Origin: a virus
DNA length: 64,000 nucleotides
Strand: one strand, 5' to 3'
IMG/VR virus record: IMGVR_UViG_3300022885_000003
Coordinates: 32,001-96,000 of that record
Within the stretch, counting starts at the first letter, position 1. Every line of letters begins with the position of its first letter. The notes under the pieces were generated by a model. That model was not told where the DNA came from. It did no database searches and saw only the letters and a list, made by a program, of their open reading frames with translations. Of this stretch, positions 597 through 53,654 are shown one piece after another. Made by a program: the position numbers and the translations under genes.

Positions 597-890
597 ATGT
601 TACCTAAAGGCGGAAATCCATTTGCGGGTCCAGAGCGTTTTCAGAAACCTGAAAAGGGCAAGGAAAACAGGACTGTACATTTTGTCTTCGACGAAGTAAC
701 GCTTGAAAAGGCCAAGGATTGGCTCAACGAGGAAGACATGCCATTTAAAACCATGCCTAAGACTCCCAAGAAACCGAAAGATGGCACTCTTTTTATCTTC
801 GATGAGCAGTCCGACGCATTGCTGTTTAGGATGCAATGGGAAGATGAAGATAAGCGTTATTCGAAAAGGACTGGAGGAAAGACTGGATGA
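597..890 (+). CDS. FKLxW-family small protein
   Basis: AAGGAAGG RBS; KDWLNE...FIFDEQSDALLFRMQW. Confidence 0.75.
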   Translation: MLPKGGNPFAGPERFQKPEKGKENRTVHFVFDEVTLEKAKDWLNEEDMPFKTMPKTPKKPKDGTLFIFDEQSDALLFRMQWEDEDKRYSKRTGGKTG

Positions 891-1234
891 CATTTGAACC
901 TAATCAGAAAGTGATGGTTCGTCGACTTGGTGATGGGAAAGAATATCGAGGACGGGTTGTTGGTCTTCATTCCGAACACGACACTTGTTCATTTTATATT
1001 ATCGAAATGATAGATAGAATTGCTAATTCCAAGTGGAGTCATGCAGTGCATATAACCTCGTGCCTTGATGCTGAAGAGTGGGCATTTGATAATCGAAGGG
1101 ATATCGAAAGTCATGTCCAAGAAGAAATGGATAGGGTGTATGGAAAAGATGTTGTAGAAGAAGAGGCAATCTTAGATCACAATGATCGTCCAGAAAACCA
1201 GCCCGGACAGCCGTTTGCGGTCCGTCAACATTAA
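887..1234 (+). CDS. hypothetical protein (possible SH3/KOW-like N-terminus)
   Basis: ATGA-coupled to the previous gene, GGAGG RBS. Confidence 0.7.
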   Translation: MTFEPNQKVMVRRLGDGKEYRGRVVGLHSEHDTCSFYIIEMIDRIANSKWSHAVHITSCLDAEEWAFDNRRDIESHVQEEMDRVYGKDVVEEEAILDHNDRPENQPGQPFAVRQH

Positions 1235-1241
1235 AAAATTG

Positions 1242-1272
1242 TTGACAATTCTATTTTAATCAAGTATAAATA
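1242..1272 (+). promoter_or_regulatory. tRNA promoter: sigma70 site overlapping a T4-like late TATAAATA
   Basis: TTGACA-N17-TATAAATA directly upstream of the tRNA. Confidence 0.65.
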
Positions 1273-1285
1273 TGTTTGTTATTTT

Positions 1286-1358
1286 GCCGCTATAGCTCAG
1301 TTGGTAGAGCGGGTGATTTGTAATCACCAGGCCCGTGGTTCGAATCCTCGTGGCGGCA
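1286..1358 (+). tRNA. tRNA-Thr(UGU), CCA not encoded
   Basis: Cloverleaf: acceptor GCCGCTA/TGGCGGC, D arm GCTC-AGTTGGTA-GAGC, anticodon arm GGTGA-TTTGTAA-TCACC, T loop TTCGAAT; one U-U mismatch in the T stem. Confidence 0.95.
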
Positions 1359-1441
1359 CTCATTTCGCTGGCGGCGTTTCTCCTTGACATGTTATAATAT
1401 CTTTTATACTATATACCGGAACAGATATAGAAAGATTCAAA

Positions 1442-1777
1442 ATGACAAAGAAAACATCTTTTAGGAAAATCGTTGAAGATCAACAGACAAAAATCCTAAA
1501 TTTTTTACAGAATAATAATTCCTTTAGTGATTCGCAGCTAGAATTTCTACAAGCGAAACATAACCCAAAGGGAATTATTTTTAGAAACTTTTACCAAAGT
1601 TATGGGAAAGGAAATGACCAGCAATCCTTTGAGATAATACGCCTTTCCAATAAACATGGTGTATCCAAAGAACATATATTAGAAGCAGATATAAGTTTTC
1701 GATACAACATGGATTCATGTTTTCATTTAGCTGAAAATATGGGTATTAGCATTCGAGAATCTGGAAAATATTATTAA
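1442..1777 (+). CDS. hypothetical protein
   Basis: 111-aa ORF after TTGACA/TATACT-like promoter elements. Confidence 0.65.
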   Translation: MTKKTSFRKIVEDQQTKILNFLQNNNSFSDSQLEFLQAKHNPKGIIFRNFYQSYGKGNDQQSFEIIRLSNKHGVSKEHILEADISFRYNMDSCFHLAENMGISIRESGKYY

Positions 1778-1787
1778 GAATCAAATA

Positions 1788-2084
1788 ATGAATTGTTACA
1801 CAACAGTTATGAATTATGAAGAATTCTTAGCCCTATCAACCCCCGAGGATCGATCTAGATTTCTCTTCAAAGTAGCTAAAATAGACAACGAAAAACGTTT
1901 TAAAGAACAGCCAACCGCCACTCACGATGATCTTATGACAAAGTCATACCAAGAAATATTAAGTTGGTGTGAAGAAAATTGTGAAGAAAATGCACTAGTT
2001 CATCTATCGCGGGGATATGTAATCACAGTATATTTCTCCTCCACTGAAGATTTGGTTAAATTTAAACTAACAATGCAAAAATAA
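1788..2084 (+). CDS. FKLxW-family small protein
   Basis: WCEENC...VYFSSTEDLVKFKLTM. Confidence 0.75.
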   Translation: MNCYTTVMNYEEFLALSTPEDRSRFLFKVAKIDNEKRFKEQPTATHDDLMTKSYQEILSWCEENCEENALVHLSRGYVITVYFSSTEDLVKFKLTMQK

Positions 2085-2199
2085 TAAAAATTATATTGTA
2101 TTCCGATATACCAATCCCATATAATACTACTTTAATGATGCTATGATGGTCATAGCATTTATACAAAACTTTGAAATCTAATTGAAAGAGGGTTTAGTT

Positions 2200-2445
2200 A
2201 TGAATACAGCAAAAGTTCGCCTACCAAACGGTCGTCGTCTAACAGCCGTTGTTGGTGGTATCAACGACACGGGTTATCGCACCGCCAAGGTAAAGATGGT
2301 CCGTTCTGACGGTGAGCAGGTTACTATTGCTGGCCGTATCACTACGCGCCATGGTTTTGACCGCACACTTCCTTTTGAAGTCAACATGCTCGGCACAAAT
2401 GCCATTCATGCTTTCGAAGGAGATGACACAGTTTACTCAAAGTAA
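2200..2445 (+). CDS. hypothetical basic beta-rich protein
   Basis: GAGGG RBS before ATG 2200; followed by a terminator-like hairpin. Confidence 0.7.
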   Translation: MNTAKVRLPNGRRLTAVVGGINDTGYRTAKVKMVRSDGEQVTIAGRITTRHGFDRTLPFEVNMLGTNAIHAFEGDDTVYSK

Positions 2446-3171: not shown

Positions 3172-3396
3172 ATGACATCATATATTGTTAGATACCAACA
3201 TTATCACGACCCTTTTGAAAGCCACGAAAGCGAAGTCGTTGATTGGTTAAAGTATAATACCGACAATGGCTATATTAAGGAGTCTAATTGGGATATGACG
3301 ATAAACAGCAATCTCGAGGCCATATATAGCAGGATATTAAGAGTTCGCTTCATGAACAAAGACGACGCCATAATATTTAAATTGAGATGGGTATGA
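3172..3396 (+). CDS. FKLxW-family small protein
   Basis: DWLKYN...RFMNKDDAIIFKLRW. Confidence 0.75.
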   Translation: MTSYIVRYQHYHDPFESHESEVVDWLKYNTDNGYIKESNWDMTINSNLEAIYSRILRVRFMNKDDAIIFKLRWV

Positions 3397-3776
3397 TAGC
3401 AGGATTTACAGGAACACAAAGCACAATGTCAACGGATCAATTTGATCGATTAGTTAAATTATGCAAAGATTATAAAATAACCGAATTGCATCACGGTGAC
3501 TGTGTTGGAGCCGATGCAGTTGCACACGATATTGCGGAATCACTTAACATTCGAACCGTAATTCACCCACCAATTAAACCATTCAAACGGGCGTTTAAGA
3601 AGGGTGATATGATATTGCCGATGAAAGATTATTTGGTCAGAAACCGAGACATTGTTAATGCCTCGGAAATTCTGTTTGCTTGCCCCAAAGGACCAGAAGA
3701 ATTACGTTCAGGAACTTGGTCAACGGTTAGATATGCTCGGCGAGTTAAGAAACCAATTGAAATTGTTATGCCTTAA
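3393..3776 (+). CDS. SLOG-superfamily (DprA/YspA-like) nucleotide-binding protein
   Basis: GFTGT, HHGDCVGAD, RNRDIV, SGTWSTVRYA motifs. Confidence 0.75.
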   Translation: MIAGFTGTQSTMSTDQFDRLVKLCKDYKITELHHGDCVGADAVAHDIAESLNIRTVIHPPIKPFKRAFKKGDMILPMKDYLVRNRDIVNASEILFACPKGPEELRSGTWSTVRYARRVKKPIEIVMP

Positions 3777-6700
3777 CTATTGTCTTTCTGTTCAGACTTC
3801 AAGCAACCATATGTTTCAACCGTTTCACCAGTATTTGCATTTTTAGATTCAAGAATAACATCAAATCCCCATAACGTATGAACATGTTTTAACATTTCAT
3901 CGGTATTATTATTCAATGGTATTTCATTTCTCATATAATGTGTTAGATACAATGTACGGTCTCCAAGTATATCGAAATCCGTAATCTGAATATCTGGAAG
4001 AATGCGATTAAGCTGATATTGCTTAGATAGAATTGATCGAACACGTTTGAAACCATAATCATCGTGAATGTTACTTACATCATATACTGGTCTTTTATTA
4101 TTATCATGAAGACTAAACAAATGCATCTTACGAATCAAGTGCGGTGATAGATATTGCAAAATAAATGATTCATCTTTGAAGTTTTCCATTGCATAATTTA
4201 ATGTAGGGAGCCAGGGCTGACCAACAATACTTGGAAACCATTCTTCATCTTCTTTAGTTGGCTTTTCACACATTCTTTTGATATCATGGAAGATATTGAA
4301 TCCAAGATAATACGGATTAAAACCACCTTGATAATATGGTGAATCAAAATCTGGCTGGAATACAACACCAGAGTGACTCTTTAGAAATTCAAGCATATTT
4401 CCATCCGAAATTCTATCCTGTTCCCATAAATCATACATCAAATGGTGATGCCAAAAACTTGCCCACCCTTCGTTCATAACTTTTGTATTATGGGATATTA
4501 ATCCATCAGTCCAAAATAAATGATTTTCTGGAACAGTTACATCATATACCCATTCTATATTTCCCTTTTCTATACTTACTATTTCATCATAATAATTATT
4601 AGATGCATTGCTTATTAATTCTAATGCTTCTTTTATTTTCGGATGACAATCTTTAATTTTTTCTAAACGTTTAATTAAGCAATATGATATTTGCTCAATC
4701 GCTACGTTATTTAGAGATAGATTAGGGAAGGCATCTAAACAATCTAATCCGGTATCTTTTAATAACAAATTATTTTTTACCTTATATGCGTAATTACTCT
4801 TTTGGTAGTTATCAGTAGCTGTATGGGCAATCTGTAATTTTTTAATAGCAGCCTTGGCTTCGATTAATACTTCTTTTCCGTTAGGAATAACTCTATTACC
4901 TTTTAGTAGTTTGATTTTAGACCGCTTAGTTCCTATTTCATCATAGAACTTGTTAGTAAAATCTGAATATATTTTTAAAGAATAATCAACGGCTTTAATA
5001 TCTTCACAATCCGGAATATTTAAAGCAAATGCAATAGACTCGAATGATTCTCTTTCTTTTATGTTGACTTTTGGTATTATACCGAAACCAGTCAGTATTA
5101 CTGATAACGTTTGTAAGTCATCATAATCGTCAGAATAACCGGCGATGGCAATGTTACCACGTTCATACGATTTTTTTGAAATTCTGGTATCAAAGAAACC
5201 ACTTAGATATTCTTTCATGTATTCTTTTTTCAAACTAAGAACAAACTTTGGTAATTCATGTCTTCTAGTTATAGATATATTTTTAAACCATATGTCTTTT
5301 AACATCATAGAAGCAAATTCGACTTTATACGACGAATAATATTCTTTAGATTTAACAACAATGCCAAACACTTTGTTGAGTAAATGAACAACGTCATCTG
5401 CTATTTCTTTTGTATCTGTAACGAATTTAAATAAAGATGCCGTTCGTCTATAGTCTGTAATAGTAGCACCCGATAAATAACCAAATAACCTGGCCGAATC
5501 ATTATTAAAATGTGTAGGCATTTTCGTTATTTTGTTTTTTGACATAGTTAATTTATATTCGTCTGAAATACAACTACCATATTCTTTTTTGTAAAAATCT
5601 ATATCGATACTATGCCGTTGTACAATATGACTTGCAATCGAGGAAGATTGTAAACCACATATCTTACATTCGATAACATCTAAATTATATTTAGGATATT
5701 TTATTTCTACTTCTTTATGCCCGAATATATCATAATCTAATTTATAAACAAGATATTCACCAGGACTCATATCCTCTAAACGCGTCATACATACTAAACC
5801 ATTATTAGATAATACTTGTAATGGGTGTTCAGGAGTGGCTGTAAAGGTTCTACCAGATTTAGTAGTTATTTTAAATGTGTCAGCTTGTTTTTTATATGTA
5901 TGAGAAATAGCTGTCGTTTTATTGCCTTCGGTTAATAAATTAAACCCAGGATGTTCTGCGATTCCTTCTGTTACGATTAGGTCTTGTAATCTAATTAAAC
6001 CATTTTCATTACTAACAAAATGATTACCAGTAAGACACTGCATTTGTGGATAAAAATACTGAGCCATTTTGCGGACGATGCGGACAATTTCACGCTGCCA
6101 CTGTTCAAGTACAGGACTATTTTTCTCAATGAAATATAAAAGGTTTTCTTGTGGTTCGCTCAAGAATTTTTTCTTTCTGGCGTCTTGATCTTCCTTCTTC
6201 GTTGGTGGAAGCGTTTTCCATAAGTCATCAACTTGGCTTTGTCGATAAGTTTCTCTATCTTGTTGCCTTAATAATTCTTTAGACTTGGAAAGCTTACGTG
6301 GCTTTTTATAGCGGTCGACACCATGATTCATAAGTGCGTGACATGAATCAAGTGTCTCTTCGACCTTTTCCTGGCCATAACGTTCTTCACATTGTTTGAT
6401 ATAACGGCGGGCGAAAACTACATAATCAATGATTGCATCAGCATCAGTCCATTCTTTAAACAGGAAATTGTTCTTAAAGAAATTATTGTGGCCATAGCCG
6501 GCATGAGCAATAACCAATGTTTGCATAGTCATGCTGTTCTCTTCCATAAGATAATTGATGGTTGGGTTAGAGTTAATAACAATCTCATATGCCAATCCCA
6601 TTGCGCCTCTTTTATAATTTTGTTCATCATGGAGGAACCTTTTTCCATAACTCCAGTGGTGATACATATTTGGCATACCAACGGAAGTATATGCATCCAA

Positions 6701-6844
6701 CATTTCAGCTGAGCCGATAATTTCGTACTGATTAGGATAACAGTCCATGCCATATGTTCCTATAGCGATATCGGCAATCGCTTTGTCAACTTCAGCAATC
6801 TTTTCAAATGTCCAATCATTGTTTGTATATAATAACTTACTCAT
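3773..6844 (-). CDS. spoVR: SpoVR/YcgB family protein interrupted by an intein
   Basis: GLAYEIVINSNP, LVIAHAGYGHNNFFKNN, YFYPQ..TKVMNEGWASFWH; exteins total 506 aa. Confidence 0.93.
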   Translation of the reverse strand: MSKLLYTNNDWTFEKIAEVDKAIADIAIGTYGMDCYPNQYEIIGSAEMLDAYTSVGMPNMYHHWSYGKRFLHDEQNYKRGAMGLAYEIVINSNPTINYLMEENSMTMQTLVIAHAGYGHNNFFKNNFLFKEWTDADAIIDYVVFARRYIKQCEERYGQEKVEETLDSCHALMNHGVDRYKKPRKLSKSKELLRQQDRETYRQSQVDDLWKTLPPTKKEDQDARKKKFLSEPQENLLYFIEKNSPVLEQWQREIVRIVRKMAQYFYPQMQCLTGNHFVSNENGLIRLQDLIVTEGIAEHPGFNLLTEGNKTTAISHTYKKQADTFKITTKSGRTFTATPEHPLQVLSNNGLVCMTRLEDMSPGEYLVYKLDYDIFGHKEVEIKYPKYNLDVIECKICGLQSSSIASHIVQRHSIDIDFYKKEYGSCISDEYKLTMSKNKITKMPTHFNNDSARLFGYLSGATITDYRRTASLFKFVTDTKEIADDVVHLLNKVFGIVVKSKEYYSSYKVEFASMMLKDIWFKNISITRRHELPKFVLSLKKEYMKEYLSGFFDTRISKKSYERGNIAIAGYSDDYDDLQTLSVILTGFGIIPKVNIKERESFESIAFALNIPDCEDIKAVDYSLKIYSDFTNKFYDEIGTKRSKIKLLKGNRVIPNGKEVLIEAKAAIKKLQIAHTATDNYQKSNYAYKVKNNLLLKDTGLDCLDAFPNLSLNNVAIEQISYCLIKRLEKIKDCHPKIKEALELISNASNNYYDEIVSIEKGNIEWVYDVTVPENHLFWTDGLISHNTKVMNEGWASFWHHHLMYDLWEQDRISDGNMLEFLKSHSGVVFQPDFDSPYYQGGFNPYYLGFNIFHDIKRMCEKPTKEDEEWFPSIVGQPWLPTLNYAMENFKDESFILQYLSPHLIRKMHLFSLHDNNKRPVYDVSNIHDDYGFKRVRSILSKQYQLNRILPDIQITDFDILGDRTLYLTHYMRNEIPLNNNTDEMLKHVHTLWGFDVILESKNANTGETVETYGCLKSEQKDNS
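4487..6037 (-). mobile_element. intein (517 aa) with a degenerate LAGLIDADG-type homing endonuclease region and a C2H2-like Zn finger
   Basis: Begins at Q|CLTGNH, block B TATPEHP, YLSGFFD motif, block F VYDVTVPENHLF, ends HN|T; CKIC...H...H insert. Confidence 0.93.
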
Positions 6845-8120
6845 CTAGTCCACCTTTCTTAAAGAGGTCACGGAAAATTGGGTATATTTCGTTTGGTGTA
6901 TCAACCTTCCTCATATGGAATCGTTCTTCCTGAATTTTCTCATAATTCTTCCAAAGTTCGGAGTCTACACCACCATTATCATAAAAGTGGGACCAATGCC
7001 CCTGGTCATGCCCTACCTCAACATATGCATAATATTGAACCTTGGGGAAAATATCATTAACCAGCATATCAATTACCTTAGTGGTATCTCCACCATAATT
7101 ATCACCATCAGATGCTTGTGCAAAATAAATGTTATAATCAGAAGTTGGATAACGATCAGTTATAATCTTATTCGCCAATTCAATAGCAGATGATACAACT
7201 GTTCCACCAGATTCCTTTGAGTAAAAGAATTCTTGTTCATCTACTTCAGCAGCAACATGATGATGTCGTATAAAGATAATATCAACTTTTTCATACTTTC
7301 TTTCAAGAAACAAATAAAGCAACATAAAGAATCTTTTTGCTAAGTCCTTTTCATATTCACCCATTGAACCCGAGACGTCCATCATACATATCATTACTGC
7401 TTGGGTAGAAGGTTCTGGCCTTTTTTCAAAATTGTTATAACGTAAATCGACATCATCAATAAAGGGTACCAGGTCCCTTTCTTTAAGTGCTAATGCAATT
7501 TCGTCATCGAATATGTCTCTTTCTTTTTTAGTTTTAGCTTTCTTTTTGTCTTCTTCAATTTTATCAATATCTTTATCGTATATAGATTGCATTGCAATTT
7601 GTCGACCAAGAGCCGCTTGCATTGATCTGACAATATTTAAATTTGCTGGATTACCAACAGCCGAATACCCTGATCGTTTTAATTTAAAGACGTCTTGATC
7701 TTTAAGTTGGGTTTTAATAAGGTCAGGGAGTTCTAGGTCTTCAAAGAAGAAATCCAAAAATTCTTCTCTAGTTAAATTAAAGGAGAATTCGTCTTCTCCA
7801 TCACCGTCAGCTGAGCCTTCGCTCCCGCCCCCACCAGAACCACCTTCTGGTTTCTTAATGGAGTCACCAACAAGTTTATCTTTGTTGCCTGGAAGAATGA
7901 AATCTCTGTTACCACCCTTGCCGTTACCAAAGGTCGGTTCCCCTATTCCTTTCTGTGGAATAGTAATTTTCTCTCCGCTGTCGATATCTTTGATATTCCG
8001 TTTCTGAACTATTTCATCTACTTGTTTTTTAATAGTTTTTCTAGCACGCTTTATAAAGCGGCGGCGGTTATCAAGGCTCTTCTTATTACTACTTTTTCTC
8101 CGGTCTACAATAGTGCTCAC
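6837..8120 (-). CDS. yeaH: YeaH/YhbH (DUF444) vWA-domain protein
   Basis: GTG start at 8120 with AAGGAGG RBS; MMDVSGSMG MIDAS motif, SGGTVVSSA, QASDGDN. Confidence 0.92.
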   Translation of the reverse strand: MSTIVDRRKSSNKKSLDNRRRFIKRARKTIKKQVDEIVQKRNIKDIDSGEKITIPQKGIGEPTFGNGKGGNRDFILPGNKDKLVGDSIKKPEGGSGGGGSEGSADGDGEDEFSFNLTREEFLDFFFEDLELPDLIKTQLKDQDVFKLKRSGYSAVGNPANLNIVRSMQAALGRQIAMQSIYDKDIDKIEEDKKKAKTKKERDIFDDEIALALKERDLVPFIDDVDLRYNNFEKRPEPSTQAVMICMMDVSGSMGEYEKDLAKRFFMLLYLFLERKYEKVDIIFIRHHHVAAEVDEQEFFYSKESGGTVVSSAIELANKIITDRYPTSDYNIYFAQASDGDNYGGDTTKVIDMLVNDIFPKVQYYAYVEVGHDQGHWSHFYDNGGVDSELWKNYEKIQEERFHMRKVDTPNEIYPIFRDLFKKGGLDE

Positions 8121-8283
8121 TGGAAGCCTCCTTACCATTGGGGGAATAGTTATTACAATACTATTTATTATTTTGGAAAATAGTTCATTCGATTTCATGC
8201 AATTTTATTTTAATAACGCTATGTTTTTTAATAATAAATAAAAGATAACATTAAAATTATGTTATATAATACCCATTAACTCC

Positions 8284-8316
8284 ACCCCGGGCTTACTTTT
8301 GCCCGGGGTCTTTTTT
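8284..8316 (+). terminator. intrinsic terminator oriented on the + strand
   Basis: ACCCCGGGC-loop-GCCCGGGGT followed by CTTTTTT. Confidence 0.7.
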
Positions 8317-8340
8317 GACTTAAATTCTAATCAAATTACA

Positions 8341-8372
8341 AAAAAGCCCCAGGATTATGTCCCAGGGCTTTT
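8341..8372 (-). terminator. prkA terminator (likely bidirectional)
   Basis: AAAAAGCCC...GGGCTTTT hairpin just after the prkA stop. Confidence 0.65.
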
Positions 8373-8400
8373 AAGTTGTAATGTACGTATTTTATTACTT

Positions 8401-10335
8401 TTATTGCGTCTTTTGAACCCTATGGTACCAATCAACTAAAATACGTGTCTGGCGCTCGGTGTAGCCCTTTTCACCCATGCGCTTGACAAAATCGTTATGC
8501 TTCTTCTGATCATCTTCTGACCTCTTAGCTGTGAAGCTAATAACTGGTAGAATCTCTTCAGTGTTAGCAAACATCTTTTCCTCAATAACGACGCGAAGCT
8601 TCTCGTAAGAAGTCCATTTTGGATTTTCGCCTTCGTGTTTGGAACGGTGACGTAGAGCAAAATTGACAACCTCATTACGGAAATCCTTAGGATTCGCAAT
8701 GCCCGCAGGCTTTTCAATCTTCTCTAGTTCATCATTTAATGCTTCACGATTAAACATTTCCCCGGTGTCTTCGTCCTTGTAGTCTTTATCCTCAACCCAA
8801 TGATCAGCATAATCAATATACCGGTCGAATAGATTCTGTCCATATTCGGAATATGACTCCAAGTATGCAACCTGCAACTCTTTTCCGATATGTTCTGCAA
8901 ATTTTGGCTTAATGTATTCATTAAGGAAAGTGAGGTACTTTTCTTCTCGCTCCTTACCCATCTGTTCTTTGATAATGGCTTCTTCTAGGACACGAAGTAG
9001 ATGAACTGGATTAGCACCAACCTCTTCTGGGTCATAGTTGAATACCTTTGAAAGAACTTTATAAGCAAAACGAGTACTTAGGCCGTGCATACCTTCATCA
9101 ACACCCGCATAGTCCTTATATTCATGCAAGCTTTTTGCACTTGGATCGTCGTCTTTGAGGTTTACACCATCATAAATACGCATCTTTGACCAAATGTTTG
9201 AGTTTTCTGGGTCAACGAGACGACTTAACACTGCAACCTGGGCCATCATTTCAAATGTTTGTGGAGTACATGGCGCCGCCGATAGACTTGATCCTGCAAC
9301 CAACTTCCTATAAATGTCAATTTCTTCTGTGACACGTAAGCAATATGGTACCTTAACAATGTAAATTCTGTCTAGGAATGCTTCATTGTTCTTGTTACCA
9401 CGGAATGTTGACCATTCGCTTTCGTTGGAGTGGGCTAGAATACCACCATTGAATGGTATTGCACCAATATTTTCTGTACCCACATAGTTTCCTTCCTGCG
9501 TAGCAGTTAGTAATGGGTGAAGAACCTTAATTGGCGCCTTGAACATTTCAACGAATTCCATAATACCCTGGTTGGCACGACATAGTGAACCATCCCATGA
9601 ATAACAATCTGGATCGTTTTGGCTATGATCACGTAGCTTACGAATGTCGACCTTACCAACTAGTGCCGAAATATCCTGGTTATTTTCATCGCCTGGTTCT
9701 GTCTTTGCAATAGCAACCTGGTTCAAACGGTTTGGTTTTACTCGAACAACACTAAACTGTTCAATATCACCATCAAATTCCTTTAGACGCTTTGATGCCC
9801 ATGGGCTCATTACCATATTTAGATAACGACGGGGAATTTTATATTCCTTTTCAAGGTCATCTGCATATTCATCTACGTCGAATAATCCAAGTGGTGATTC
9901 AAAACATGGGCTAATGTCATCGCCTGCTTTAAGAACGTAAATTGGATATTGTTCCATCAACTTCTTCAAATGCTCAGCGAGACTGGATTTACCACCACCA
10001 ACTGGTCCTAGAAGGTACAATACCTGTTTCTTTTCTTCCAAGCCCTGTGCAGAATGCTTATAATAACCAACAATCTGCTCAATTGTATCTTCCATACCAT
10101 AAAAGCCTTCAAATGACTTATATCGTTTGATTGTTCGGTTTGAGAAAATACGGCTAAGTCGATTATCAGATGACGTATCAACATATTCTGGTTCACCAAT
10201 TGCTGCCAACATGCGTTCAGCAGATGTAGCATATGTTGTTGGATCTTTTTTACAAAGAGCCAAATATTCACCTATTGACAATTCTTCGGCCGCGTTATTA
10301 TCATGATGTGATTTGTATTTTTTGAATATACTCAT
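8401..10335 (-). CDS. prkA: PrkA/YeaG AAA+ ATPase (annotated serine protein kinase)
   Basis: GPVGGGKSS Walker A, EPGDENNQDIS, RANQGIMEFVEMFK, NPKDFRNEVV; 644 aa. Confidence 0.95.
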   Translation of the reverse strand: MSIFKKYKSHHDNNAAEELSIGEYLALCKKDPTTYATSAERMLAAIGEPEYVDTSSDNRLSRIFSNRTIKRYKSFEGFYGMEDTIEQIVGYYKHSAQGLEEKKQVLYLLGPVGGGKSSLAEHLKKLMEQYPIYVLKAGDDISPCFESPLGLFDVDEYADDLEKEYKIPRRYLNMVMSPWASKRLKEFDGDIEQFSVVRVKPNRLNQVAIAKTEPGDENNQDISALVGKVDIRKLRDHSQNDPDCYSWDGSLCRANQGIMEFVEMFKAPIKVLHPLLTATQEGNYVGTENIGAIPFNGGILAHSNESEWSTFRGNKNNEAFLDRIYIVKVPYCLRVTEEIDIYRKLVAGSSLSAAPCTPQTFEMMAQVAVLSRLVDPENSNIWSKMRIYDGVNLKDDDPSAKSLHEYKDYAGVDEGMHGLSTRFAYKVLSKVFNYDPEEVGANPVHLLRVLEEAIIKEQMGKEREEKYLTFLNEYIKPKFAEHIGKELQVAYLESYSEYGQNLFDRYIDYADHWVEDKDYKDEDTGEMFNREALNDELEKIEKPAGIANPKDFRNEVVNFALRHRSKHEGENPKWTSYEKLRVVIEEKMFANTEEILPVISFTAKRSEDDQKKHNDFVKRMGEKGYTERQTRILVDWYHRVQKTQ

Positions 10336-10952: not shown

Positions 10953-11497
10953 TGTCTGGACAAGTTATGAGTGGATCAAATATAGAACTAGTTGAAAATT
11001 CGTTAATGCATGAATTAATACAAGAATTACGAAAAAATACCAGTGTTATCCCTAAAGAACAAAGGTGGTCTATCCCACGAAACGAATTCAGTGTTTTCAA
11101 AGATGGCAACTTTGTTATAAATCCAAACAATAAAGAAGAAGTTAAGGGGTATTTTCAAAATTCAGAGGGTATTTTTGTCCCCGATCATGATTGGGATTAT
11201 CCCTTAATAATCAAACCAGCTGATACTGTTAGTAGAATTTTATCAACATATAAGATTGTTTTAATATCTCATGAGTGCAATCGTTGGTTCCTTAATCGAC
11301 AGATAGGAATATACCAGAGACGTATTGAATGGAGTTACCCATTTCAAGTAACTCTCCAAGAATGCCCGATTGAAGTATATAAATGGTGTGATGAAAACTG
11401 CACAAAGGCATGGAACGGTCATCACCAGGACGACCCAATTATTTTTTCTTTTAACAATGAAGATGACGCAATATTATTCAAATTGACATGGGTATAA
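10952..11497 (+). CDS. FKLxW-family protein with extended N-terminus
   Basis: KWCDENC..W...FSFNNEDDAILFKLTW. Confidence 0.75.
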   Translation: MSGQVMSGSNIELVENSLMHELIQELRKNTSVIPKEQRWSIPRNEFSVFKDGNFVINPNNKEEVKGYFQNSEGIFVPDHDWDYPLIIKPADTVSRILSTYKIVLISHECNRWFLNRQIGIYQRRIEWSYPFQVTLQECPIEVYKWCDENCTKAWNGHHQDDPIIFSFNNEDDAILFKLTWV

Positions 11498-12282: not shown

Positions 12283-13053
12283 ATGTCAAAAGACATTACA
12301 ACAATACCATTGATGGCACCCGTTATTGATTGCAGTAATTTAGTAATATATCCACGTAGACGAAAAAATAAAGATACACCATTTTGCCCGGATTCGGAAA
12401 AATTAATCAAAGTTGTACGAAGAATTAATTATGGTGTTAATTATGCCCGCGGCGGGAAACGAATTTACTTAAAATTCCTTCGAGGAAAATATCAGGGTTC
12501 GATTGTTTATATTTCAGATATAATTAAATATGATAACCGTAATGTTTCAAAATCATACATCAAATCGCCAAGATATTTCTTTTCATTAACAGTTCGTTAC
12601 GCATGGGATGATAAGAAAGGAAAGAAAGTAGAATTACTCAAAGGTATAAACACACCATTAGTTGAATGGTTAGTTAATTATGATGGTCCAACAGTATATA
12701 AGGAATTTGATACCAAATCCTCTGTGGATGAAATTTTAGCTAAAAATCCATTGTTTGACGTAAGAGGCAAACCAATTGAAATTGGTAATAAGGTTATGTT
12801 TATCAATTCGAGATTCAACAAAGCCGCTTCATTGGATTACGGTGTGATCAAAGAGATTAAGGTTAAAATAGATATCAATGATTTCCATGTTGATAGCGAT
12901 AAAAATGAAATAATTGTGATTATTGAAAGCGTAAGAACAGATAAAAATAACAAGCCATTTCTTTCCAATATTAAAGCATATTCGTCGATGATAATTTGTA
13001 TCGACGATACTGATTTAGTAAACGATATGTTAATGGCGAAATTGGAAGGATGA
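12283..13053 (+). CDS. hypothetical protein, tandem paralogue A
   Basis: Colinear similarity to 13061..13828 (IYxxFxxGxxxGSI, WDD, YxGPTV, KVxFINSR, LDYGV, DMLxAKL). Confidence 0.75.
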   Translation: MSKDITTIPLMAPVIDCSNLVIYPRRRKNKDTPFCPDSEKLIKVVRRINYGVNYARGGKRIYLKFLRGKYQGSIVYISDIIKYDNRNVSKSYIKSPRYFFSLTVRYAWDDKKGKKVELLKGINTPLVEWLVNYDGPTVYKEFDTKSSVDEILAKNPLFDVRGKPIEIGNKVMFINSRFNKAASLDYGVIKEIKVKIDINDFHVDSDKNEIIVIIESVRTDKNNKPFLSNIKAYSSMIICIDDTDLVNDMLMAKLEG

Positions 13054-41111: not shown

Positions 41112-41166
41112 ATTGACTTATTATGACAATAATTGTTATAATGATGTATAATTATGGAGATACTAA

Positions 41167-41985
41167 ATGATAACCAATGAAGCAACTAGTATTCGTCGTT
41201 CCATGCATCTGAACGTAACGGATATGAAATTCCTATCCGAAAAAGAACGACTTGTATTTTTAGAAAACAAGTTTATTATAGACATGGAAGATAACAAAGC
41301 ATCAGAATCACCCATCGAAGAATTCTTTTCAACGATGCGTGACTCATGTAAGCATTTCTATCATGTAAGTTCTCCCGAGAAGAAAAATGACAGACTTGTT
41401 TATTACATTTATTTCTCTTCTAAAGATGATGTGCAGCGGATACATTCAAAAATATTAAAACCCATGGGGAAAGAGTTGAGTGAAAATGATATAATATTCT
41501 TGGATAATGAAACTAAAAGGAATATGTTGAATAATAAATTTGCTCTAACTACATTAGAAGACGATGAATCTGATGAGATTGAGTGTCTAAAGCAGATTAG
41601 AGCAAAATATAAACACTATTTTTACATTGGTGCCACGGTTATAAGCAATGATAATAATTATGTAACACGACATATATATTTTGAAAATGCAAAGGATGCA
41701 GAAAAAATCAAATCAGAATATTTATCACCAACCAAAGAACTCGTAACATCAGATTTAGAATGCCTGCGTGATGATATCAAATCTAAACTTTTGCAAAATA
41801 AATTCATTGTGCGAACAAATGAAGAAAAAAGAGATGCTATCTTTGAAAATTATAAATCATGGCTTCGAGAAAATTGTGAAAGCTTTTTCTACTTGGGTGA
41901 TAAGAAATATGATAAAGGTGATTCAGTATTCTATATCTATTTTGAAGACCAAGAAGAAGCAAAATTATTTAAACTAACGTTTTAA
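41167..41985 (+). CDS. protein with three tandem FKLxW-family domains
   Basis: 3x (L.NKF...FY....IYF....D/E); last unit ends FEDQEEAKLFKLTF; own early promoter at 41113. Confidence 0.8.
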   Translation: MITNEATSIRRSMHLNVTDMKFLSEKERLVFLENKFIIDMEDNKASESPIEEFFSTMRDSCKHFYHVSSPEKKNDRLVYYIYFSSKDDVQRIHSKILKPMGKELSENDIIFLDNETKRNMLNNKFALTTLEDDESDEIECLKQIRAKYKHYFYIGATVISNDNNYVTRHIYFENAKDAEKIKSEYLSPTKELVTSDLECLRDDIKSKLLQNKFIVRTNEEKRDAIFENYKSWLRENCESFFYLGDKKYDKGDSVFYIYFEDQEEAKLFKLTF

Positions 41986-44039: not shown

Positions 44040-44150
44040 CACTAAGTATATTTATACTAGCAGAATTCAATTAAAACATAAGTTAAAGTTATTGAAACCA
44101 ACCGATAAATATTCATAGCAGCCTATATTTAAAACCCCTTGAAGGAGGCT

Positions 44151-44885
44151 ATGATGAAGACCAAACGTTCTAAACGAGCAACTCGTCGTAATCCACGTGA
44201 AGACCGAAACTATTCGGCAACTAGCGAAAAACAATCATTTAATGCACCAAAACATATAGCTTTGATTCCCCGTAATCTAAGTCAAGAACATTATGTCAAT
44301 GCCTTAAAAGATGATACTAAGGCAATTGTTGTTGCAACTGGGCCAGCAGGTTGTGGTAAAACCTGGTTAGGATCAATTGCAGCTATCAAAGCATATAACG
44401 AAGGACAATGTGATAAAATTGTAATTACTCGCCCTAATCGCGCAGTAGATGATAAAGATATCGGGTTCCTCCCTGGTGACATTTTTAAGAAGATGATGCC
44501 ATGGATGCTACCAATTATGGATGTATTCAAAGAATATTATTCACCACAACAGGTAGAAAAAATGCTTGAGGACGAAATCATCGAGGTGTGCCCAATTGCG
44601 TATATTCGTGGTCGTACGTTCAAAAATGCATTTGTTATTGTTGATGAAGCGCAAGGCACTACAAAAAATTCAATGTTGTCAATTCTAACACGAATTGGTG
44701 AAGGATCTAAGATGGTTGTAACAGGTGATGTCCGTCAATCAGACATCGGCTCAAGCAACGGTCTACAGGATTTCATTAATCGCTTCGAGGGTTCAGATTT
44801 AATTTCAGTGATTAAATTTGAAAGAAAAGATGTTGAACGTTCTCCAGTAGTTTCGGAAGTTTTACGAATTTACAAAGAAGAATAA
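44151..44885 (+). CDS. phoH: PhoH-like ATPase
   Basis: GPAGCGKT, GFLPGD, RGRTF, DEAQ, LTRIG, GDVRQSD; AAGGAGG RBS. Confidence 0.95.
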   Translation: MMKTKRSKRATRRNPREDRNYSATSEKQSFNAPKHIALIPRNLSQEHYVNALKDDTKAIVVATGPAGCGKTWLGSIAAIKAYNEGQCDKIVITRPNRAVDDKDIGFLPGDIFKKMMPWMLPIMDVFKEYYSPQQVEKMLEDEIIEVCPIAYIRGRTFKNAFVIVDEAQGTTKNSMLSILTRIGEGSKMVVTGDVRQSDIGSSNGLQDFINRFEGSDLISVIKFERKDVERSPVVSEVLRIYKEE

Positions 44886-47256: not shown

Positions 47257-47646
47257 ATGGCATACATGTTTAATCCAGAAGACTTTAGATGTACGGGATC
47301 GTATAATAGGATTAGTTCATTTAATGTTGGAAAAAATGGTAACACCGCAACATATGGTGAATGGGCGAAATCTGTTGCGGATTTTTTACCACATCATATA
47401 TTGTTGAATAATCAACAACTAGGTGATAGTTTTCATCACAGACGATGGATTTCATCAAATTGTAATTATTGGTGGACAAATTCAAACCTTACATCTTCTT
47501 ATCTACTAAGAAAAAATAAAGATATACCCGAAGTGGGCGGATCACATACACCATTGAATAGTTTGCTATCTATTGTCTCATCAAAAGATTATTATTTGTT
47601 TGAAGATAAAAATGATGCAATTATTTTTCGACTATATGCTTCATAA
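47257..47646 (+). CDS. FKLxW-family protein
   Basis: RWISSNC..W...LFEDKNDAIIFRLY. Confidence 0.72.
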   Translation: MAYMFNPEDFRCTGSYNRISSFNVGKNGNTATYGEWAKSVADFLPHHILLNNQQLGDSFHHRRWISSNCNYWWTNSNLTSSYLLRKNKDIPEVGGSHTPLNSLLSIVSSKDYYLFEDKNDAIIFRLYAS

Positions 47647-47659: not shown

Positions 47660-47995
47660 ATGGCTGTAAGAGTTTATCTTAACAACTCCAACGAAACCAA
47701 AGAAGCTATTGAATGGATTGAGCAGCGTGGTATCAAATATAAGATTCTACGTGGAAACAAAGCAGTCGATCCTGATACTCGAGTAAGGGCTCCTAATATG
47801 TGGAGATCTAGTCATCATTCTTATTTCGGTATTGAATCATATACAGAAACTGAAAAGGATGAATTCTATCCAAGAATTAGAAACTCTATCTTGTATGAAA
47901 ATGGCCCCAACACGGAACACAACAAAGACTATTCAGTTGGATTCGTATTATTTGATGAAAAAGAAGCGATCGAATTTAAACTTATTTACGGCTGA
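47660..47995 (+). CDS. FKLxW-family protein
   Basis: EWIEQRG...[14 protein letters not shown]. Confidence 0.72.
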
Positions 47996-48039: not shown

Positions 48040-48264
48040 ATGAGTAAACAAGATATAATTCTAGTTCAAGGTGTTATCACCAACGTTCTCCCCAATGCAA
48101 TGTTTAAAGTAGAACTAGATGATTCAAAACACGTAATTATCGGTCATATATCAGGAAAGATGCGGAAGAATAATATCAATATTCTTCTTGGTGACCGTGT
48201 TGATGTCGAAATGACACCATATGATCTTACCAAAGGCCGAATCGTTTTCCGATATAAGAAATAA
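48040..48264 (+). CDS. infA: translation initiation factor IF-1
   Basis: [42 protein letters not shown]. Confidence 0.96.
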
Positions 48265-49879: not shown

Positions 49880-50329
49880 TTAACCCCACGTCATCTTAAT
49901 TAAAACCAAATCTTGTTTTGTCGTATTATATGGGTCGATATCATTTTCTTTAAACCAACTCAGAGGTATATGGCCTCCATTCAAATACCACGCATTTGAT
50001 CCATCTACGCCTTCAACAGCCGGACCATCATGTCGATGTAATTCCCCATTCACATACCACTGGTTTGTTCCATACTTAAATTCAAGAGCTGGCCCATCAA
50101 TTCGATGTAGTTTTCCGTCCTTGTACCATACCTTTGATCCATCCGCAGATTCAATAGCTGGTCCATCAAGTCGATGTCGTTTTCCATCAACCCACCACTC
50201 CTTTGTTCCATCTGCATCTATAAGAGCTGGGCCGCCATCTCGATGCAGGAATAATAATGATGACTGATATTCATCATTAGATATCCATTTGTCTCCATCT
50301 CTTGTCCATATATGAATATTCTTTTCCAT
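49880..50329 (-). CDS. HRxDGPA repeat protein with FKLxW-like tail
   Basis: 4 repeats; ends SWFKENDIDPYNTTKQDLVLIKMTWG. Confidence 0.8.
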   Translation of the reverse strand: MEKNIHIWTRDGDKWISNDEYQSSLLFLHRDGGPALIDADGTKEWWVDGKRHRLDGPAIESADGSKVWYKDGKLHRIDGPALEFKYGTNQWYVNGELHRHDGPAVEGVDGSNAWYLNGGHIPLSWFKENDIDPYNTTKQDLVLIKMTWG

Positions 50330-50331
50330 AT

Positions 50332-50685
50332 CTAGCACCATGTCATTTTAAACAACACTGCGTCATCGCAGTTTTCGAACCAATACAAATCACCGGAAAG
50401 ACTGCACCATTTATGTTCAGTATTTTCTATTATCCATATAATTTTTACTGGGTACATCCCATCAGAATTGAATTCTCGTCGTGTGAAAAATGTTTCAACC
50501 ATATGTCCGTCATCAATATCACCGCTGTCCAATTTGTCATTATATCGTGGCAGATTGCCTAAATCAGAAGTTAGCCATTCCGGATAATTTTCAATTTTTC
50601 CTTGAAAATGTTTCATAATCTCAACAACACCAATACTGATTTTTCTTTTATTCCAACCAGTTGGATATTCTAGTTCATTTGTCAT
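50332..50685 (-). CDS. FKLxW-family protein
   Basis: WIIENT..W...YWFENCDDAVLFKMTW. Confidence 0.75.
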   Translation of the reverse strand: MTNELEYPTGWNKRKISIGVVEIMKHFQGKIENYPEWLTSDLGNLPRYNDKLDSGDIDDGHMVETFFTRREFNSDGMYPVKIIWIIENTEHKWCSLSGDLYWFENCDDAVLFKMTWC

Positions 50686-51027: not shown

Positions 51028-51264
51028 TTAACACCATACCATTTTGAACAAAGTGGCCTCTTCGATATCATATATACAAAAAATCATCCTAGAAAGATGC
51101 TCATAATTAGTAATATTATCCATTAGCCATGTATTCAACATTTCAACTTCGAAATATTCAGTAATTAGAATACTAAAATAAACGGCGGGTTCAAGGCGAA
51201 GATGTTCAAGATAAAAATCTTCCCGGTCAGCTTGAACAACAACTAAGGTATCGATATCTTCCAT
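51028..51264 (-). CDS. FKLxW-family small protein
   Basis: TWLMDN...IEEATLFKMVW. Confidence 0.7.
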   Translation of the reverse strand: MEDIDTLVVVQADREDFYLEHLRLEPAVYFSILITEYFEVEMLNTWLMDNITNYEHLSRMIFCIYDIEEATLFKMVWC

Positions 51265-51653
51265 TATAGTTCCCCGCCCCAACATATCTGCATTAATACT
51301 TGTTCTTCTTTAGTAATATTGGTTATGTCGATGATATTATCCTTGATCCATTCATCCGGGATTCGATTCCCATCCACAAACCACGCTTTGGTTCCATCTG
51401 GATATTCAATAGCTGGTCCATCAATTCGGTGTCGATTCCCGTTTATAAACCACTCTTTTTTACCATTGGCGCGTTTGATTGCGGGGCCATCGGCGTGGTG
51501 GCGTTTTCCGTATATATACCATTCAACTGATCCATTTTTAAATACAACCGCTGGGCCATTAATTCGATGTAGAGCGTTTCGATATAGATCGTTATCAATA
51601 AACCACATCTTTGTACCGTATGGAGAAATATCTGGATTAGTCTTTTTAGACAT
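51264..51653 (-). CDS. HRxDGPA repeat protein with FKLxW-like tail
   Basis: 3 repeats; WIKDNIIDITNITKEEQVLMQICW. Confidence 0.78.
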   Translation of the reverse strand: MSKKTNPDISPYGTKMWFIDNDLYRNALHRINGPAVVFKNGSVEWYIYGKRHHADGPAIKRANGKKEWFINGNRHRIDGPAIEYPDGTKAWFVDGNRIPDEWIKDNIIDITNITKEEQVLMQICWGGEL

Positions 51654-51700
51654 TATCAATTATCCACATGAATATATCTTTTCATATTAGCCAATGTTTA

Positions 51701-52126
51701 TCACTTCACTTCGTACGGCTTGTTCCACTTACCAATGTTCATCCGAACATGATAACCAATGTCGAAATAGTCCGACTGGATGTCGCTGTTATCATAATTC
51801 TTGATGTTCATCGCCTTCAGCAATGCAACAATTACCTTCTGGGCTTCATCGGTAAAATGTTCATGTGCCCAGAACGGGTTGATATCAATGCTGTCTTCAG
51901 CGAGTCGATTCTTCATGTGGTCTGTGATATATTTGTTCTTTTCTTCGGCTACCGCGTTATAGTTGCCAATGAAGTCAATCGGCCCACTTTTAACATTCAA
52001 TGTGAGCATCGTACCGTTGCTAACAGCGAGGGAATACTTCAACTTTCCCTTCAAACCAAGGATTTCAACGGTTGCATCAATCGCCGCTTTGATTTCTTTT
52101 TTCATTTCCTGGTTCATGTACGCCAT
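51701..52126 (-). CDS. phage early protein of unknown function
   Basis: YDNSDIQSDYFDIGY..IGKWNKPY motif; strong promoter cassette. Confidence 0.75.
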   Translation of the reverse strand: MAYMNQEMKKEIKAAIDATVEILGLKGKLKYSLAVSNGTMLTLNVKSGPIDFIGNYNAVAEEKNKYITDHMKNRLAEDSIDINPFWAHEHFTDEAQKVIVALLKAMNIKNYDNSDIQSDYFDIGYHVRMNIGKWNKPYEVK

Positions 52127-52189
52127 TTTCGATCTCCGTGTTGCTGTTTGCTTATGTCATAATTATAACATGGAATGACGACATGTCAA
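52127..52189 (-). promoter_or_regulatory. early promoter plus conserved leader cassette
   Basis: TTGACA-N16-TATAAT-TATGACATAAGCAAACAGCAACACGGAGATCGAAA-ATG. Confidence 0.75.
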
Positions 52190-52191
52190 CC

Positions 52192-52461
52192 TTACGAAAA
52201 GGTTAAACGGAATAAAACAGCGTCTTCTTTAGATTTAAAATAAAAGGATTTTACGCCAGTGTAATAAAGGTCCGATGAGGTGCTATACCATTCATCGGTT
52301 ACATTGTTAATAATCCATATACGTAACTGCCAAACCGATGTTCCAATTGCGTGTCTCAATGAGTCTGACATTTCAACCGGGTTCCAAGTATCAAATACTT
52401 CTCTCTTCTTAGCCGCTCGTTCGACGCCCAGCAATGTATGTACTTCAAGATCCGACATCAT
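52192..52461 (-). CDS. FKLxW-family small protein
   Basis: IWIINN..W...FYFKSKEDAVLFRLTF. Confidence 0.72.
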   Translation of the reverse strand: MMSDLEVHTLLGVERAAKKREVFDTWNPVEMSDSLRHAIGTSVWQLRIWIINNVTDEWYSTSSDLYYTGVKSFYFKSKEDAVLFRLTFS

Positions 52462-52467
52462 TCATCC

Positions 52468-52974
52468 CTATTTGATATATGCACCGAGTTCGATTTCTTC
52501 TTTGGTTAATAATGCCATATAGGCCGTCCGTAATTCGGCTCTCTTAATCTTCTGGTCGGCCTTGGAAACATTCTTCTTAAAAACCTTTGATTGCCATCTC
52601 CACGGCATGACGCCATTAACTCGATAAATTTCCATATATTGCGTGGCGGCGAAAGCATATGCCTGGATCTTCTTCTCGTCATCCAATCCCGGAAAGATTG
52701 TCACTGTGGACAGAAATTCCTTCACCGCGAATTTAACGGTCAATGGAGCATTACCGAGAACACTGTTGATATCCCGGTGCGATGCAACCAAATTCCATTG
52801 ATCACGTTTGACAAATTTGTGAATCTTCCGCAATGCATCCTGCGAGACCAAATGTTCAACCGAATAAGTGTCGTCGATTAATTTCACACCTGTGTAAAAG
52901 CACGTCGAATACGTAGAACGAACATATTCTTTGGGAGTAAGACGCTTACCATTCACTTGATTATCATTGAGCAT
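52468..52974 (-). CDS. HNH-like nuclease-domain protein
   Basis: CFYTG...SVEHLV...WNLVASHRDIN. Confidence 0.65.
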   Translation of the reverse strand: MLNDNQVNGKRLTPKEYVRSTYSTCFYTGVKLIDDTYSVEHLVSQDALRKIHKFVKRDQWNLVASHRDINSVLGNAPLTVKFAVKEFLSTVTIFPGLDDEKKIQAYAFAATQYMEIYRVNGVMPWRWQSKVFKKNVSKADQKIKRAELRTAYMALLTKEEIELGAYIK

Positions 52975-53035
52975 ATCGATCCCTTTGATTCCGTGTTATG
53001 CTATTATTATAACATGGATCGATATGTTGTCAACC

Positions 53036-53302
53036 TTAGTGATACAGATATGCTGCCGGCGTTCCTTCAAAATCATCTGATGGGATATGAGCCATATCAA
53101 CGTCGATTCCGTATGGCTCATACCCGTAATGAGTCTCACCGTTTGAGTCGGCCCATCCATTTTTTGAATTTAATTGTTTTAGGATTTTGTCAATATACTG
53201 ACAAGATACTGCAACTGTTCTTAAACTATGGCAATTACATAACTGCCGTTGAACGATCGCGTCTCGTCTGAGGCTTAGAAATTGATACTTCGTCATATAC
53301 AT
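53036..53302 (-). CDS. hypothetical protein
   Basis: AAGGAG RBS; dual early/late promoter upstream. Confidence 0.65.
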   Translation of the reverse strand: MYMTKYQFLSLRRDAIVQRQLCNCHSLRTVAVSCQYIDKILKQLNSKNGWADSNGETHYGYEPYGIDVDMAHIPSDDFEGTPAAYLYH

Positions 53303-53423
53303 TTTGCATCTCCTTAATGGAGTTTGACGTCTTTCGCAAATGCGGGGCGCGTGGCATTCCCTTGCTATTATTTATAATATAATACTGTTCGGGTATGTTG
53401 TCAAGTTTTAAAATGTAAGTTTT

Positions 53424-53654
53424 TCATTGCTGCCACACCAGTTTCACCATAACAGCATCTTCAAGTGAAAGGCTAAAGATCATATCAGGTGAACCAGTAT
53501 AACATTTAATATCAAATATACCGTTTAATTCCAAATTTATCCACTTTAGGAATTTGGCATATTCATAACCATCATCAAAATCAAGTGTATAGTGTTTCTT
53601 ATTTCGATCTAAGTGAAATCTTTCGATTTCATTTTCTTTTAATTCAACCAACAT
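53424..53654 (-). CDS. FKLxW-family small protein
   Basis: KWINLE...FSLSLEDAVMVKLVW. Confidence 0.7.
   Translation of the reverse strand: MLVELKENEIERFHLDRNKKHYTLDFDDGYEYAKFLKWINLELNGIFDIKCYTGSPDMIFSLSLEDAVMVKLVWQQ

Follow-up and report, generated by a model that had tools for sequence, protein, structure and literature searches.

What is the use of a short C-terminal sequence that recurs in many small, otherwise dissimilar genes of one virus? This question is raised by a stretch of 64,000 nucleotides, bases 32001-96000 of the 114,738-bp IMG/VR virus record IMGVR_UViG_3300022885_000003, which we call the window and whose coordinates are used throughout. Between positions 597 and 53654 a series of open reading frames (ORFs) carries a motif of the form F-x4-[DE]-A-x-x-F-[KR]-[LM]-x-[WFY], visible at or near the C-terminus of their translations. 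The original prediction, made from the letters of the sequence, took this motif for a docking helix by which a library of adaptors recruits many targets to one hub. The reading that we favor, at a probability of about 0.5, is that the genes form a diversified early-gene scaffold, in other words a toolbox of small early binder or inhibitor proteins that carry a common mini-domain, rather than adaptors to a single hub.

A strongly expanded family of small genes

When the six-frame ORFs of the 114.7-kb record were searched with the terminal-helix pattern [DE]x3[FILVMC][KR][LMI]x[WFY], 23 matches were found, of which 17 lie at most 2 amino acids (aa) from the stop codon, versus means of 6.6 in total and 0.34 near the stop in 200 shuffles, with a near-stop maximum of 3. 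A hidden Markov model (HMM) based on the last ~45 residues of 18 window members gave these training members 36.6-59.2 bits, and the best shuffled ORF (5x shuffles) and the best reversed ORF 11.6 and 11.0 bits, respectively. It also recovered members that had not been used for training, situated past the end of the window, namely six minus-strand genes at window-equivalent positions 66196-67983 (five with E values of 4e-10 to 2e-7 and one of 2e-3) and a 258-aa protein at 72331-73107 (E 4e-4). The comparison with shuffled controls that had been proposed as a check thus gave a separation (members at least 36.6 bits, controls at most 11.6 bits), and since the HMM parts members from controls and finds untrained ones, the family is real and strongly expanded. 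The list of 19 ORFs with a full motif held for 18 of them; ORF 40435-40695 received no HMM score even at an E value of 100 and was dropped, as it is at most a degenerate look-alike. With this ORF removed and the untrained members included, the whole record holds ~25 members, 18 of which are in the window. The starts given for 21244 and 47660 are ATG codons internal to longer ORFs that begin at 21214 and 47573. The ORFs, named below by their first coordinate, are as follows.

597-890 (+), member, 97 aa; domain 702-842, followed by a 15-aa basic tail; HMM 44.3 bits
1788-2084 (+), member, 98 aa; domain 1947-2078; HMM 48.5 bits
2549-2824 (+), member, 91 aa; domain 2666-2821; HMM 47.3 bits
3172-3396 (+), member, 74 aa, nearly all domain; domain 3226-3393; HMM 46.2 bits
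10952-11497 (+), member, 181 aa; domain 11366-11494; HMM 59.2 bits
21244-21534 (+), member, 96 aa; domain 21346-21531, with a long hairpin insert; HMM 45.9 bits
33435-33752 (-), member, 105 aa; domain 33462-33581, with 8 aa past the motif; HMM 44.6 bits
33804-34133 (-), member, up to 109 aa; domain 33807-33926; HMM 58.5 bits
34112-34405 (-), member, 97 aa; domain 34115-34234; HMM 54.8 bits
34407-34763 (-), member, 118 aa; domain 34410-34529; HMM 56.8 bits
40435-40695 (+), non-member, listed in the original prediction; no HMM score at E 100
40692-41111 (+), member, 139 aa; domain 40995-41108; HMM 39.4 bits
41167-41985 (+), member, 272 aa, three tandem copies; terminal canonical copy 41842-41982; HMM 45.5 bits
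47257-47646 (+), member, 129 aa; domain 47455-47643, with a long hairpin insert; HMM 43.2 bits
47660-47995 (+), member, 111 aa from the ATG; domain 47867-47992; HMM 36.6 bits
50332-50685 (-), member, 117 aa; domain 50335-50454; HMM 59.1 bits; source of the segment modeled with AlphaFold2
51028-51285 (-), member, 85 aa; domain 51031-51147; HMM 49.7 bits
52192-52461 (-), member, 89 aa; domain 52195-52335; HMM 55.4 bits
53424-53654 (-), member, 76 aa; domain 53430-53561; HMM 44.8 bits

The N-termini are mostly unrelated, as had been claimed: only those of 34407 and 50332 (E 7e-10) and those of a Cys-rich MDCxxC group past the window match each other at E <1e-6. The N-terminus of 40692 contains a hydrophobic stretch of ~30 aa that is likely a membrane anchor. 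The N-terminal part of 10952 (130 aa), which is of unassigned type, has no Pfam match, and the gene upstream of it is dCMP-deaminase-like. Two proteins of this phage carry tandem copies, 41167 and 72331; the internal copies of the former, at 41317-41430 (10.2 bits) and 41605-41700 (2.4 bits), are degenerate, and the profile search likewise reports three stretches.

Paralogues within this phage share 25-45% identity. Of 25 members, 20 have a closer match outside the genome, in a small sample of other phages, than among their own paralogues, sometimes over the full length; the best outside relatives of 21244 and 52192 are 38% identical over 94 aa and 55% identical over 58 aa, respectively. Because matches in other phages exceed those among paralogues, the expansion seems to be old, with subfamilies kept between phages, and by sequence comparison it is well supported that the family is old and diversified and not the product of a recent burst.

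Two adjacent 255-aa paralogues at 12283-13053 and 13061-13828 (+) end in a strand and a helix (D-x-V-x-D-M-L-x-A-K-L-x-x) that resemble the family tail. In these proteins Ala and Gly replace the Phe and Trp of the motif, and they have neither a family HMM score nor a Pfam match.

A predicted mini-domain and its variable parts

To see what the motif is part of, the 54-residue C-terminal segment of 50332 was modeled as a monomer with AlphaFold2, using an alignment of 25 paralogues. The model, with a mean predicted local distance difference test (pLDDT) score of 83.6 and a predicted template modeling score of 0.66, has helices at residues 15-25 and 43-53 and strands at residues 30-34 and 37-40. 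It is well supported that the conserved part is a ~40-residue alpha-beta-beta-alpha mini-domain, predicted to fold alone, and from the helix-strand-strand-helix order of the model the motif would be helix 2 of this compact unit. In the model W-x3-N falls in helix 1, the F of F-x4-[DE]-A in strand 2, and [DE]-A-x2-F-K-L-x-W in helix 2. Helix 1 ends in W-[CLI]-x-[ED]-N, the hairpin loop varies in length from ~8 to >30 residues, and helix 2, [DE]-A-x-[LM]-F-K-L-x-W, ends 0-3 residues ahead of the stop. The conserved part was originally taken for a bare docking helix, a description with which a mini-domain that is predicted to fold confidently by itself does not agree.

In an alignment of 378 members the conserved positions are, in order, W (99%), N (74%), F (92%), D (84%), A (93%), F (96%), K (87%), L (84%) and W (79%), and the remaining columns are variable; the consensus reads W-C-x2-N-C-x-G-x-W ... 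F-x-F-E-x3-D-A-x-L-F-K-L-x-W. The W-[CLI]-x-[ED]-N element that had been noticed ahead of the motif is therefore real, given the conservation of its Trp and Asn. The near-invariant W, F, A, F, L and W, together with the capping N and D and one Lys, appear to be of the kind that builds a small hydrophobic core and caps helices, and since the conserved residues suit these roles we read the motif as a fold skeleton and not as an exposed docking peptide. The original prediction had set against itself the case in which F, L and W are buried in a self-contained fold with no common partner; of this case, it is the self-contained fold that the AlphaFold2 models support. A metal site formed by the Cys pair of helix 1 was considered and rejected, as each Cys is present in less than half of the members and is freely substituted by Leu, Ile and Val, also in this phage.

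Foldseek found no significant match of the domain model in the PDB, and the family profile gave only chance-level matches with PDB sequences. An exhaustive structure aligner returned a flat list, with Z scores up to 5.3, of two-layer alpha/beta domains (ACT, RRM, KH, secretin N-domains and designed ferredoxins). Matches in the viral structure library BFVD, with template modeling scores of 0.7-0.83, are all uncharacterized proteins from uncultured tailed phages.

This list bears on the suggestion that the element is a small RRM or ferredoxin-like domain that binds nucleic acids. The fold class was right, in that the matches are two-layer alpha/beta sandwiches, RRMs match at Z 4.1-4.8, and strand 2 often bears an outward-facing aromatic residue. 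However, RRMs do not outscore the ACT, KH or secretin domains, neither an RNP1/RNP2 motif nor a Pfam RRM match is present, the outward-facing positions of the sheet are variable, and the domains are mostly acidic (66% net negative, median isoelectric point 5.05), which makes nucleic-acid binding very unlikely.

A second possibility suggested by the fold, which we regard as rather doubtful, is that the small sheet and the helix pair form an oligomerization module, through which paralogues would assemble into homo- or hetero-oligomers in an ACT-like manner, giving mixed complexes. Sheets of only two or three strands that leave one face open usually require a partner, the nearest folds include ACT domains and designed beta-sheet heterodimers, and many paralogues share operons and are read as co-expressed from their arrangement. 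On the other hand, the chain could itself close off this open face with its variable N-terminal segment, and positive evidence for oligomers was not obtained: complex prediction with two copies of the domain gave a score of 0.15 and a mark of 0.42, which speaks neither for nor against dimerization.

The proportions of the proteins were compared among homologue representatives. Their median length is 88 aa, most fall between 55 and 100 aa (101 of 150 are at most 100 aa long) and some measure 55-65 aa, so that the domain makes up the greater part of most homologues, leaving little space for a separate recognition module. Twenty of the 150 best representatives have two or three matched stretches, and several of these keep the full motif in the internal copies, indicating that a free C-terminus is not required. 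Pfam recognized no known fused domain in ten longer family members, and a word-index search for homologues with longer, fused architectures returned a single weak match. The proposed modularity accordingly holds in part: some exists, in the putative anchor of 40692, the Cys-rich subgroup, the tandem copies and fusions to MORN-like repeat proteins described below, but the bulk of the homologues consist mainly of the domain.

These proportions also bear on the idea that the tail is a C-terminal signal, i.e., a degron or a packaging or secretion tag, read by a protease or sorting machine that times or places unrelated early proteins. The strong bias of the motif toward the last residues, often ending in W-G, would fit such a tag, and the phage encodes both a large subtilase and PrkA. 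Nevertheless, we consider this highly improbable, since the conserved unit is a folded domain of 40 residues and no short tail, internal copies keep the motif, members 597 and 33435 carry 8-15 residues past it, and PrkA does not co-occur with the family.

Putative early promoters, repeat-protein tails and the search for a hub

The 114.7-kb record contains 31 sigma-70 sites of the form TTGACA-N16-18-TATAAT that match at 11 or more of the 12 positions, including 12 perfect ones, whereas shuffled sequence yields ~7. It had been claimed that many family genes have their own early promoter. This applies to 34407, 33435 and 41167, which have a site of at least 11/12 directly upstream, but most other members come second or later in short operons that lie downstream of such sites. 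The sites in question are listed here.

33801-33774 (-), sigma-70 site, 11/12, upstream of 33435
34801-34772 (-), sigma-70 site, perfect 12/12, upstream of 34407
41113-41152 (+), sigma-70 site, 11/12, upstream of 41167
52162-52189 (-), sigma-70 site, perfect TTGACA-N16-TATAAT, heading the operon 51701 / 51264 / 51028 / 50687 / 50332 / 49880
53006-53033 (-), sigma-70 site, perfect, upstream of 52468-52974 and member 52192
54238-54265 (-), sigma-70 site, perfect, upstream of 53644-54231 and member 53424

Based on these short operons behind consensus sigma-70 promoters, the family genes are probably transcribed early by the host RNA polymerase. The promoter set as a whole consists of unusually clean host-type sites, and further perfect ones are located at 14748-14775 (+), 15046-15073 (+) and 48655-48627 (-).

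In the operon that runs from 52189 down to 49880, family members alternate with repeat proteins. The latter belong to a group of four that had been described as ending in a helix-only version of the motif, and that consist of stacks of 23-residue beta-hairpins with G-x-W-Y-x-N-G repeats, which Pfam names DUF6745 and not MORN.

13861-14721 (+), MORN-like repeat protein, 286 aa; DUF6745 E 3e-16; tail consisting of the two family helices without a hairpin between them
49880-50341 (-), MORN-like repeat protein, 153 aa; ends in a repeat hairpin, an SWFKEN helix, a loop and a DLVLIKMTW helix
50687-51037 (-), MORN-like repeat protein, 116 aa; two-helix tail as in 49880
51264-51659 (-), MORN-like repeat protein, 131 aa; two-helix tail, more divergent

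The tails of these proteins align with the terminal helix of the family (hhalign probability 91%, E 1e-6, 17 columns), as the helix-only description implied, but in all four a W-[FLI]-x-[ED]-N-like (SWFKEN-type) helix precedes the terminal one, so that helix 1 is there as well. In the AlphaFold2 model of 49880 (pLDDT 86.4) the last repeat hairpin (residues 115-124), a helix at 126-131, a loop and a helix at 141-151 are all predicted with high confidence, and the top PDB matches are MORN4/Myo3a (probability 0.99) and MORN1. According to this model the tail of the repeat proteins is a permuted form of the domain, in the order hairpin, helix 1, helix 2, with the hairpin supplied by the last repeat. 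The same tail occurs on a few repeat proteins of other phages (P0166, P0214, P0236 and P0246) and is common to only ~5 of the 120 nearest repeat-protein relatives, most of which end differently.

The adaptor library of the original prediction, in which the helix pair would be a common docking surface that brings the targets of the variable parts to one hub (a protease/AAA+ machine, the sliding clamp or RNA polymerase), can be weighed against these observations. The F-K-L-x-W sequence is strictly conserved, including a Lys in 87% of the members; in IMG/VR loci 181 of 203 ORFs have the domain right at the C-terminus (see below); several phages have the two helices joined to MORN-like proteins that are otherwise unrelated; and the N-terminal parts are varied. 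Against this, the motif belongs to a domain predicted to fold confidently alone, many members of 55-70 aa have no space for a recognition module, and the motif is kept in internal copies. Of the proposed hubs, PrkA-YeaH was the one compared by co-occurrence, and it fails in both directions: four near-complete huge phages with 29-37 copies of the family have no PrkA domain, and no family members were found in two jumbo phages with close PrkA homologues, the 344-kb Ralstonia phage RsoM2USA and LR745206, a metagenomic phage of 635 kb. A clamp encoded in the window was rejected as hub, since no clamp gene is present there and the gene after the clamp-loader-like ATPase, 44139-44885, is PhoH. No positive support for adaptors to one hub emerged, and we consider them unlikely. 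We likewise see little chance that the helix pair (W-x3-N and F-K-L-x-W) is a portable docking surface that plugs early proteins, the MORN-repeat proteins included, into one host machine or into each other.

PrkA is encoded in the window by a phage PrkA / YeaH (DUF444) / SpoVR operon at 3773-10335 (-). An intein that includes a LAGLIDADG homing-endonuclease domain splits its SpoVR gene (1023 aa), and close homologues of its PrkA are found in Ralstonia phage RsoM2USA and in metagenomic huge phages of 635-642 kb.

In the toolbox of early binders that we favor, the domain would be the stable scaffold shared by all paralogues, the variable hairpin loop and the N-terminal segment would give each paralogue its own target, and the resulting small binders or inhibitors would serve host takeover or counter-defense. 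Several points weigh against this. The function as binder scaffold is deduced from the architecture, the early timing only from the promoter consensus, and the idea that F, L and W are buried from the confidence of the monomer model combined with the conservation pattern. A near-invariant Lys and a strong tendency to lie at the very C-terminus are also what one would expect of a conserved interaction surface, and the recurrence of the helix pair without the hairpin on MORN-like proteins suggests a portable unit, which favors a shared function or partner.

Distribution, gene neighborhood and comparison with known systems

A profile search of 1.84 billion representative proteins returned 1,843 clusters at E ≤1e-3, most of them 55-160 aa long with the domain at the end. 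The ESM Atlas labels family proteins as 'hypothetical protein' of the taxon Uroviricota (tailed phages). A degenerate DNA pattern for the helix located 113 IMG/VR loci, together ~1 Mb, with 203 domain ORFs, 181 of which end at most 3 aa from the stop; three IMG/VR loci from isolate genomes (L004, L026 and L088) are chance pattern matches. The four near-complete huge phages (416-465 kb, at least 90% complete) contain 36, 36, 37 and 29 copies, a 183-kb phage fragment contains 26, and contigs of 40-70 kb that CheckV rates 8-23% complete contain 5-16. In the huge phages these genes form tandem arrays of proteins of 60-130 aa. Sporadic copies are present in prophage-like regions of Paraburkholderia, Rhizobium, Novosphingobium, Allosphingosinicella and Beijerinckia, and in a DNA-pattern scan of bacterial genomes (32-bit pattern, 596 Gb), which yielded mostly chance matches, 6 of 120 loci have a real domain. 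It is thus well supported that the family is phage-specific, widespread and enriched in huge phages. With 29-37 copies per genome of 416-465 kb and many in fragments, it can be regarded as a hallmark of huge phages, and the 115-kb record itself may be a fragment of such a phage.

No match was found in Pfam, PHROGs or NCBIfam for any of 60 representatives, nor in Pfam for the domain of 10 window members, and a full-text literature search for FKLTW-type strings gave no relevant paper. With neither a family-database name nor a paper containing the motif found in this way, the family appears to be undescribed. A tblastn search of INPHARED with a 68-aa member gave no hit at E ≤0.01, which, with a short query from a divergent family, is not proof of absence, and megablast of 8 kb of the window against the same database found no match.

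In two huge phages (G003 and G002, loci L119 and L122) many genes of the tandem arrays end in K-L-T-W-G-G-(E). Judged at the protein level only, the codons of the terminal Trp-Gly-Gly may supply a GGAGG-like ribosome-binding site for the next gene of the array.

Several other genes in the window were identified along the way.

48040-48264 (+), 74-aa phage-encoded homologue of translation initiation factor IF-1 (Pfam eIF-1a/IF-1, 87 bits)
38615-39175 (+), 186-aa ORF whose only match is with a short part of the DNA polymerase III alpha NTPase domain, perhaps from a polymerase gene that has been split or fragmented
59459-60790 (-) and 61942-63111 (-), multi-domain proteins with a polyvalent-protein ADP-ribosyltransferase domain (with DUF5661) and an Acb1-like anti-CBASS domain
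21581-25819 (+), 17852-20272 (-) and 25876-31637 (+), a 1412-aa subtilase with Ig-like domains adjoining tail-fiber-like proteins, in which a T7 tail-fiber N-domain and DUF7483 with lectin and SPRY domains are found

Huge phages carry hundreds of genes without a known role. The present family accounts for ~30 genes per genome in one group of these phages and is missing from Pfam, PHROGs and NCBIfam, so a name and a profile for it would annotate thousands of 'hypothetical proteins', and it marks huge-phage fragments in metagenomes. A domain of ~40 residues that is predicted to fold by itself, with a variable loop and N-terminus, offers a tractable entry to the early accessory genes of huge phages, and may also be of use as a small natural scaffold for binders. 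A common partner, if there is one, would lead to a central host target of these phages, and if the helix pair were a portable docking surface, phages would have an adaptor or assembly code akin to the F-box systems that viruses of eukaryotes use.

The poxvirus ankyrin/PRANC proteins, F-box-like adaptors, resemble the family in that a C-terminal module of ~40-50 residues is present on many paralogues of a large viral genome with differing N-terminal parts. They differ in several respects: Pfam detected neither a PRANC nor an F-box signal in the 10 window members and 60 homologues, there is no ankyrin match, the N-termini of the phage family are mostly short, mutually unrelated segments instead of a repeat domain, and its module is alpha-beta-beta-alpha, not a helical F-box. 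The ferredoxin-like or split beta-alpha-beta domains (ACT, RRM, KH and secretin N-domains) share the placement of two helices on one face of a small antiparallel sheet and are the best structural matches (Z 4-5.3, root-mean-square deviation 2.0-2.6 Å over 50-54 residues). However, the phage domain has two confident strands and a weak N-terminal one, no single family stands out, a sequence signal is lacking, and the phage domains are mostly acidic, without ligand- or RNA-binding motifs. An RRM is four-stranded, with the order beta1-alpha1-beta2-beta3-alpha2-beta4; the phage model shows two firm strands and a weak N-terminal one, and RRMs match it at the Z scores given above. The strand columns of the phage family are variable apart from one core Phe. 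The four repeat proteins, with their stacks of 23-residue beta-hairpins, are like the MORN-repeat proteins (MORN4, MORN1 and junctophilin) and the DUF6745-type HRxDGPA repeat proteins, from which they are distinguished by ending in the two helices of the family.

Finally, large viruses such as jumbo phages and giant viruses carry tens of divergent paralogues, often as tandem arrays, in accessory regions. The phage family differs from such expanded multigene families in having no database name and no paper on its motif that a full-text search could find. Large, divergent multigene families are a familiar feature of the accessory regions of very large viruses, whereas this particular family appears to be undescribed.

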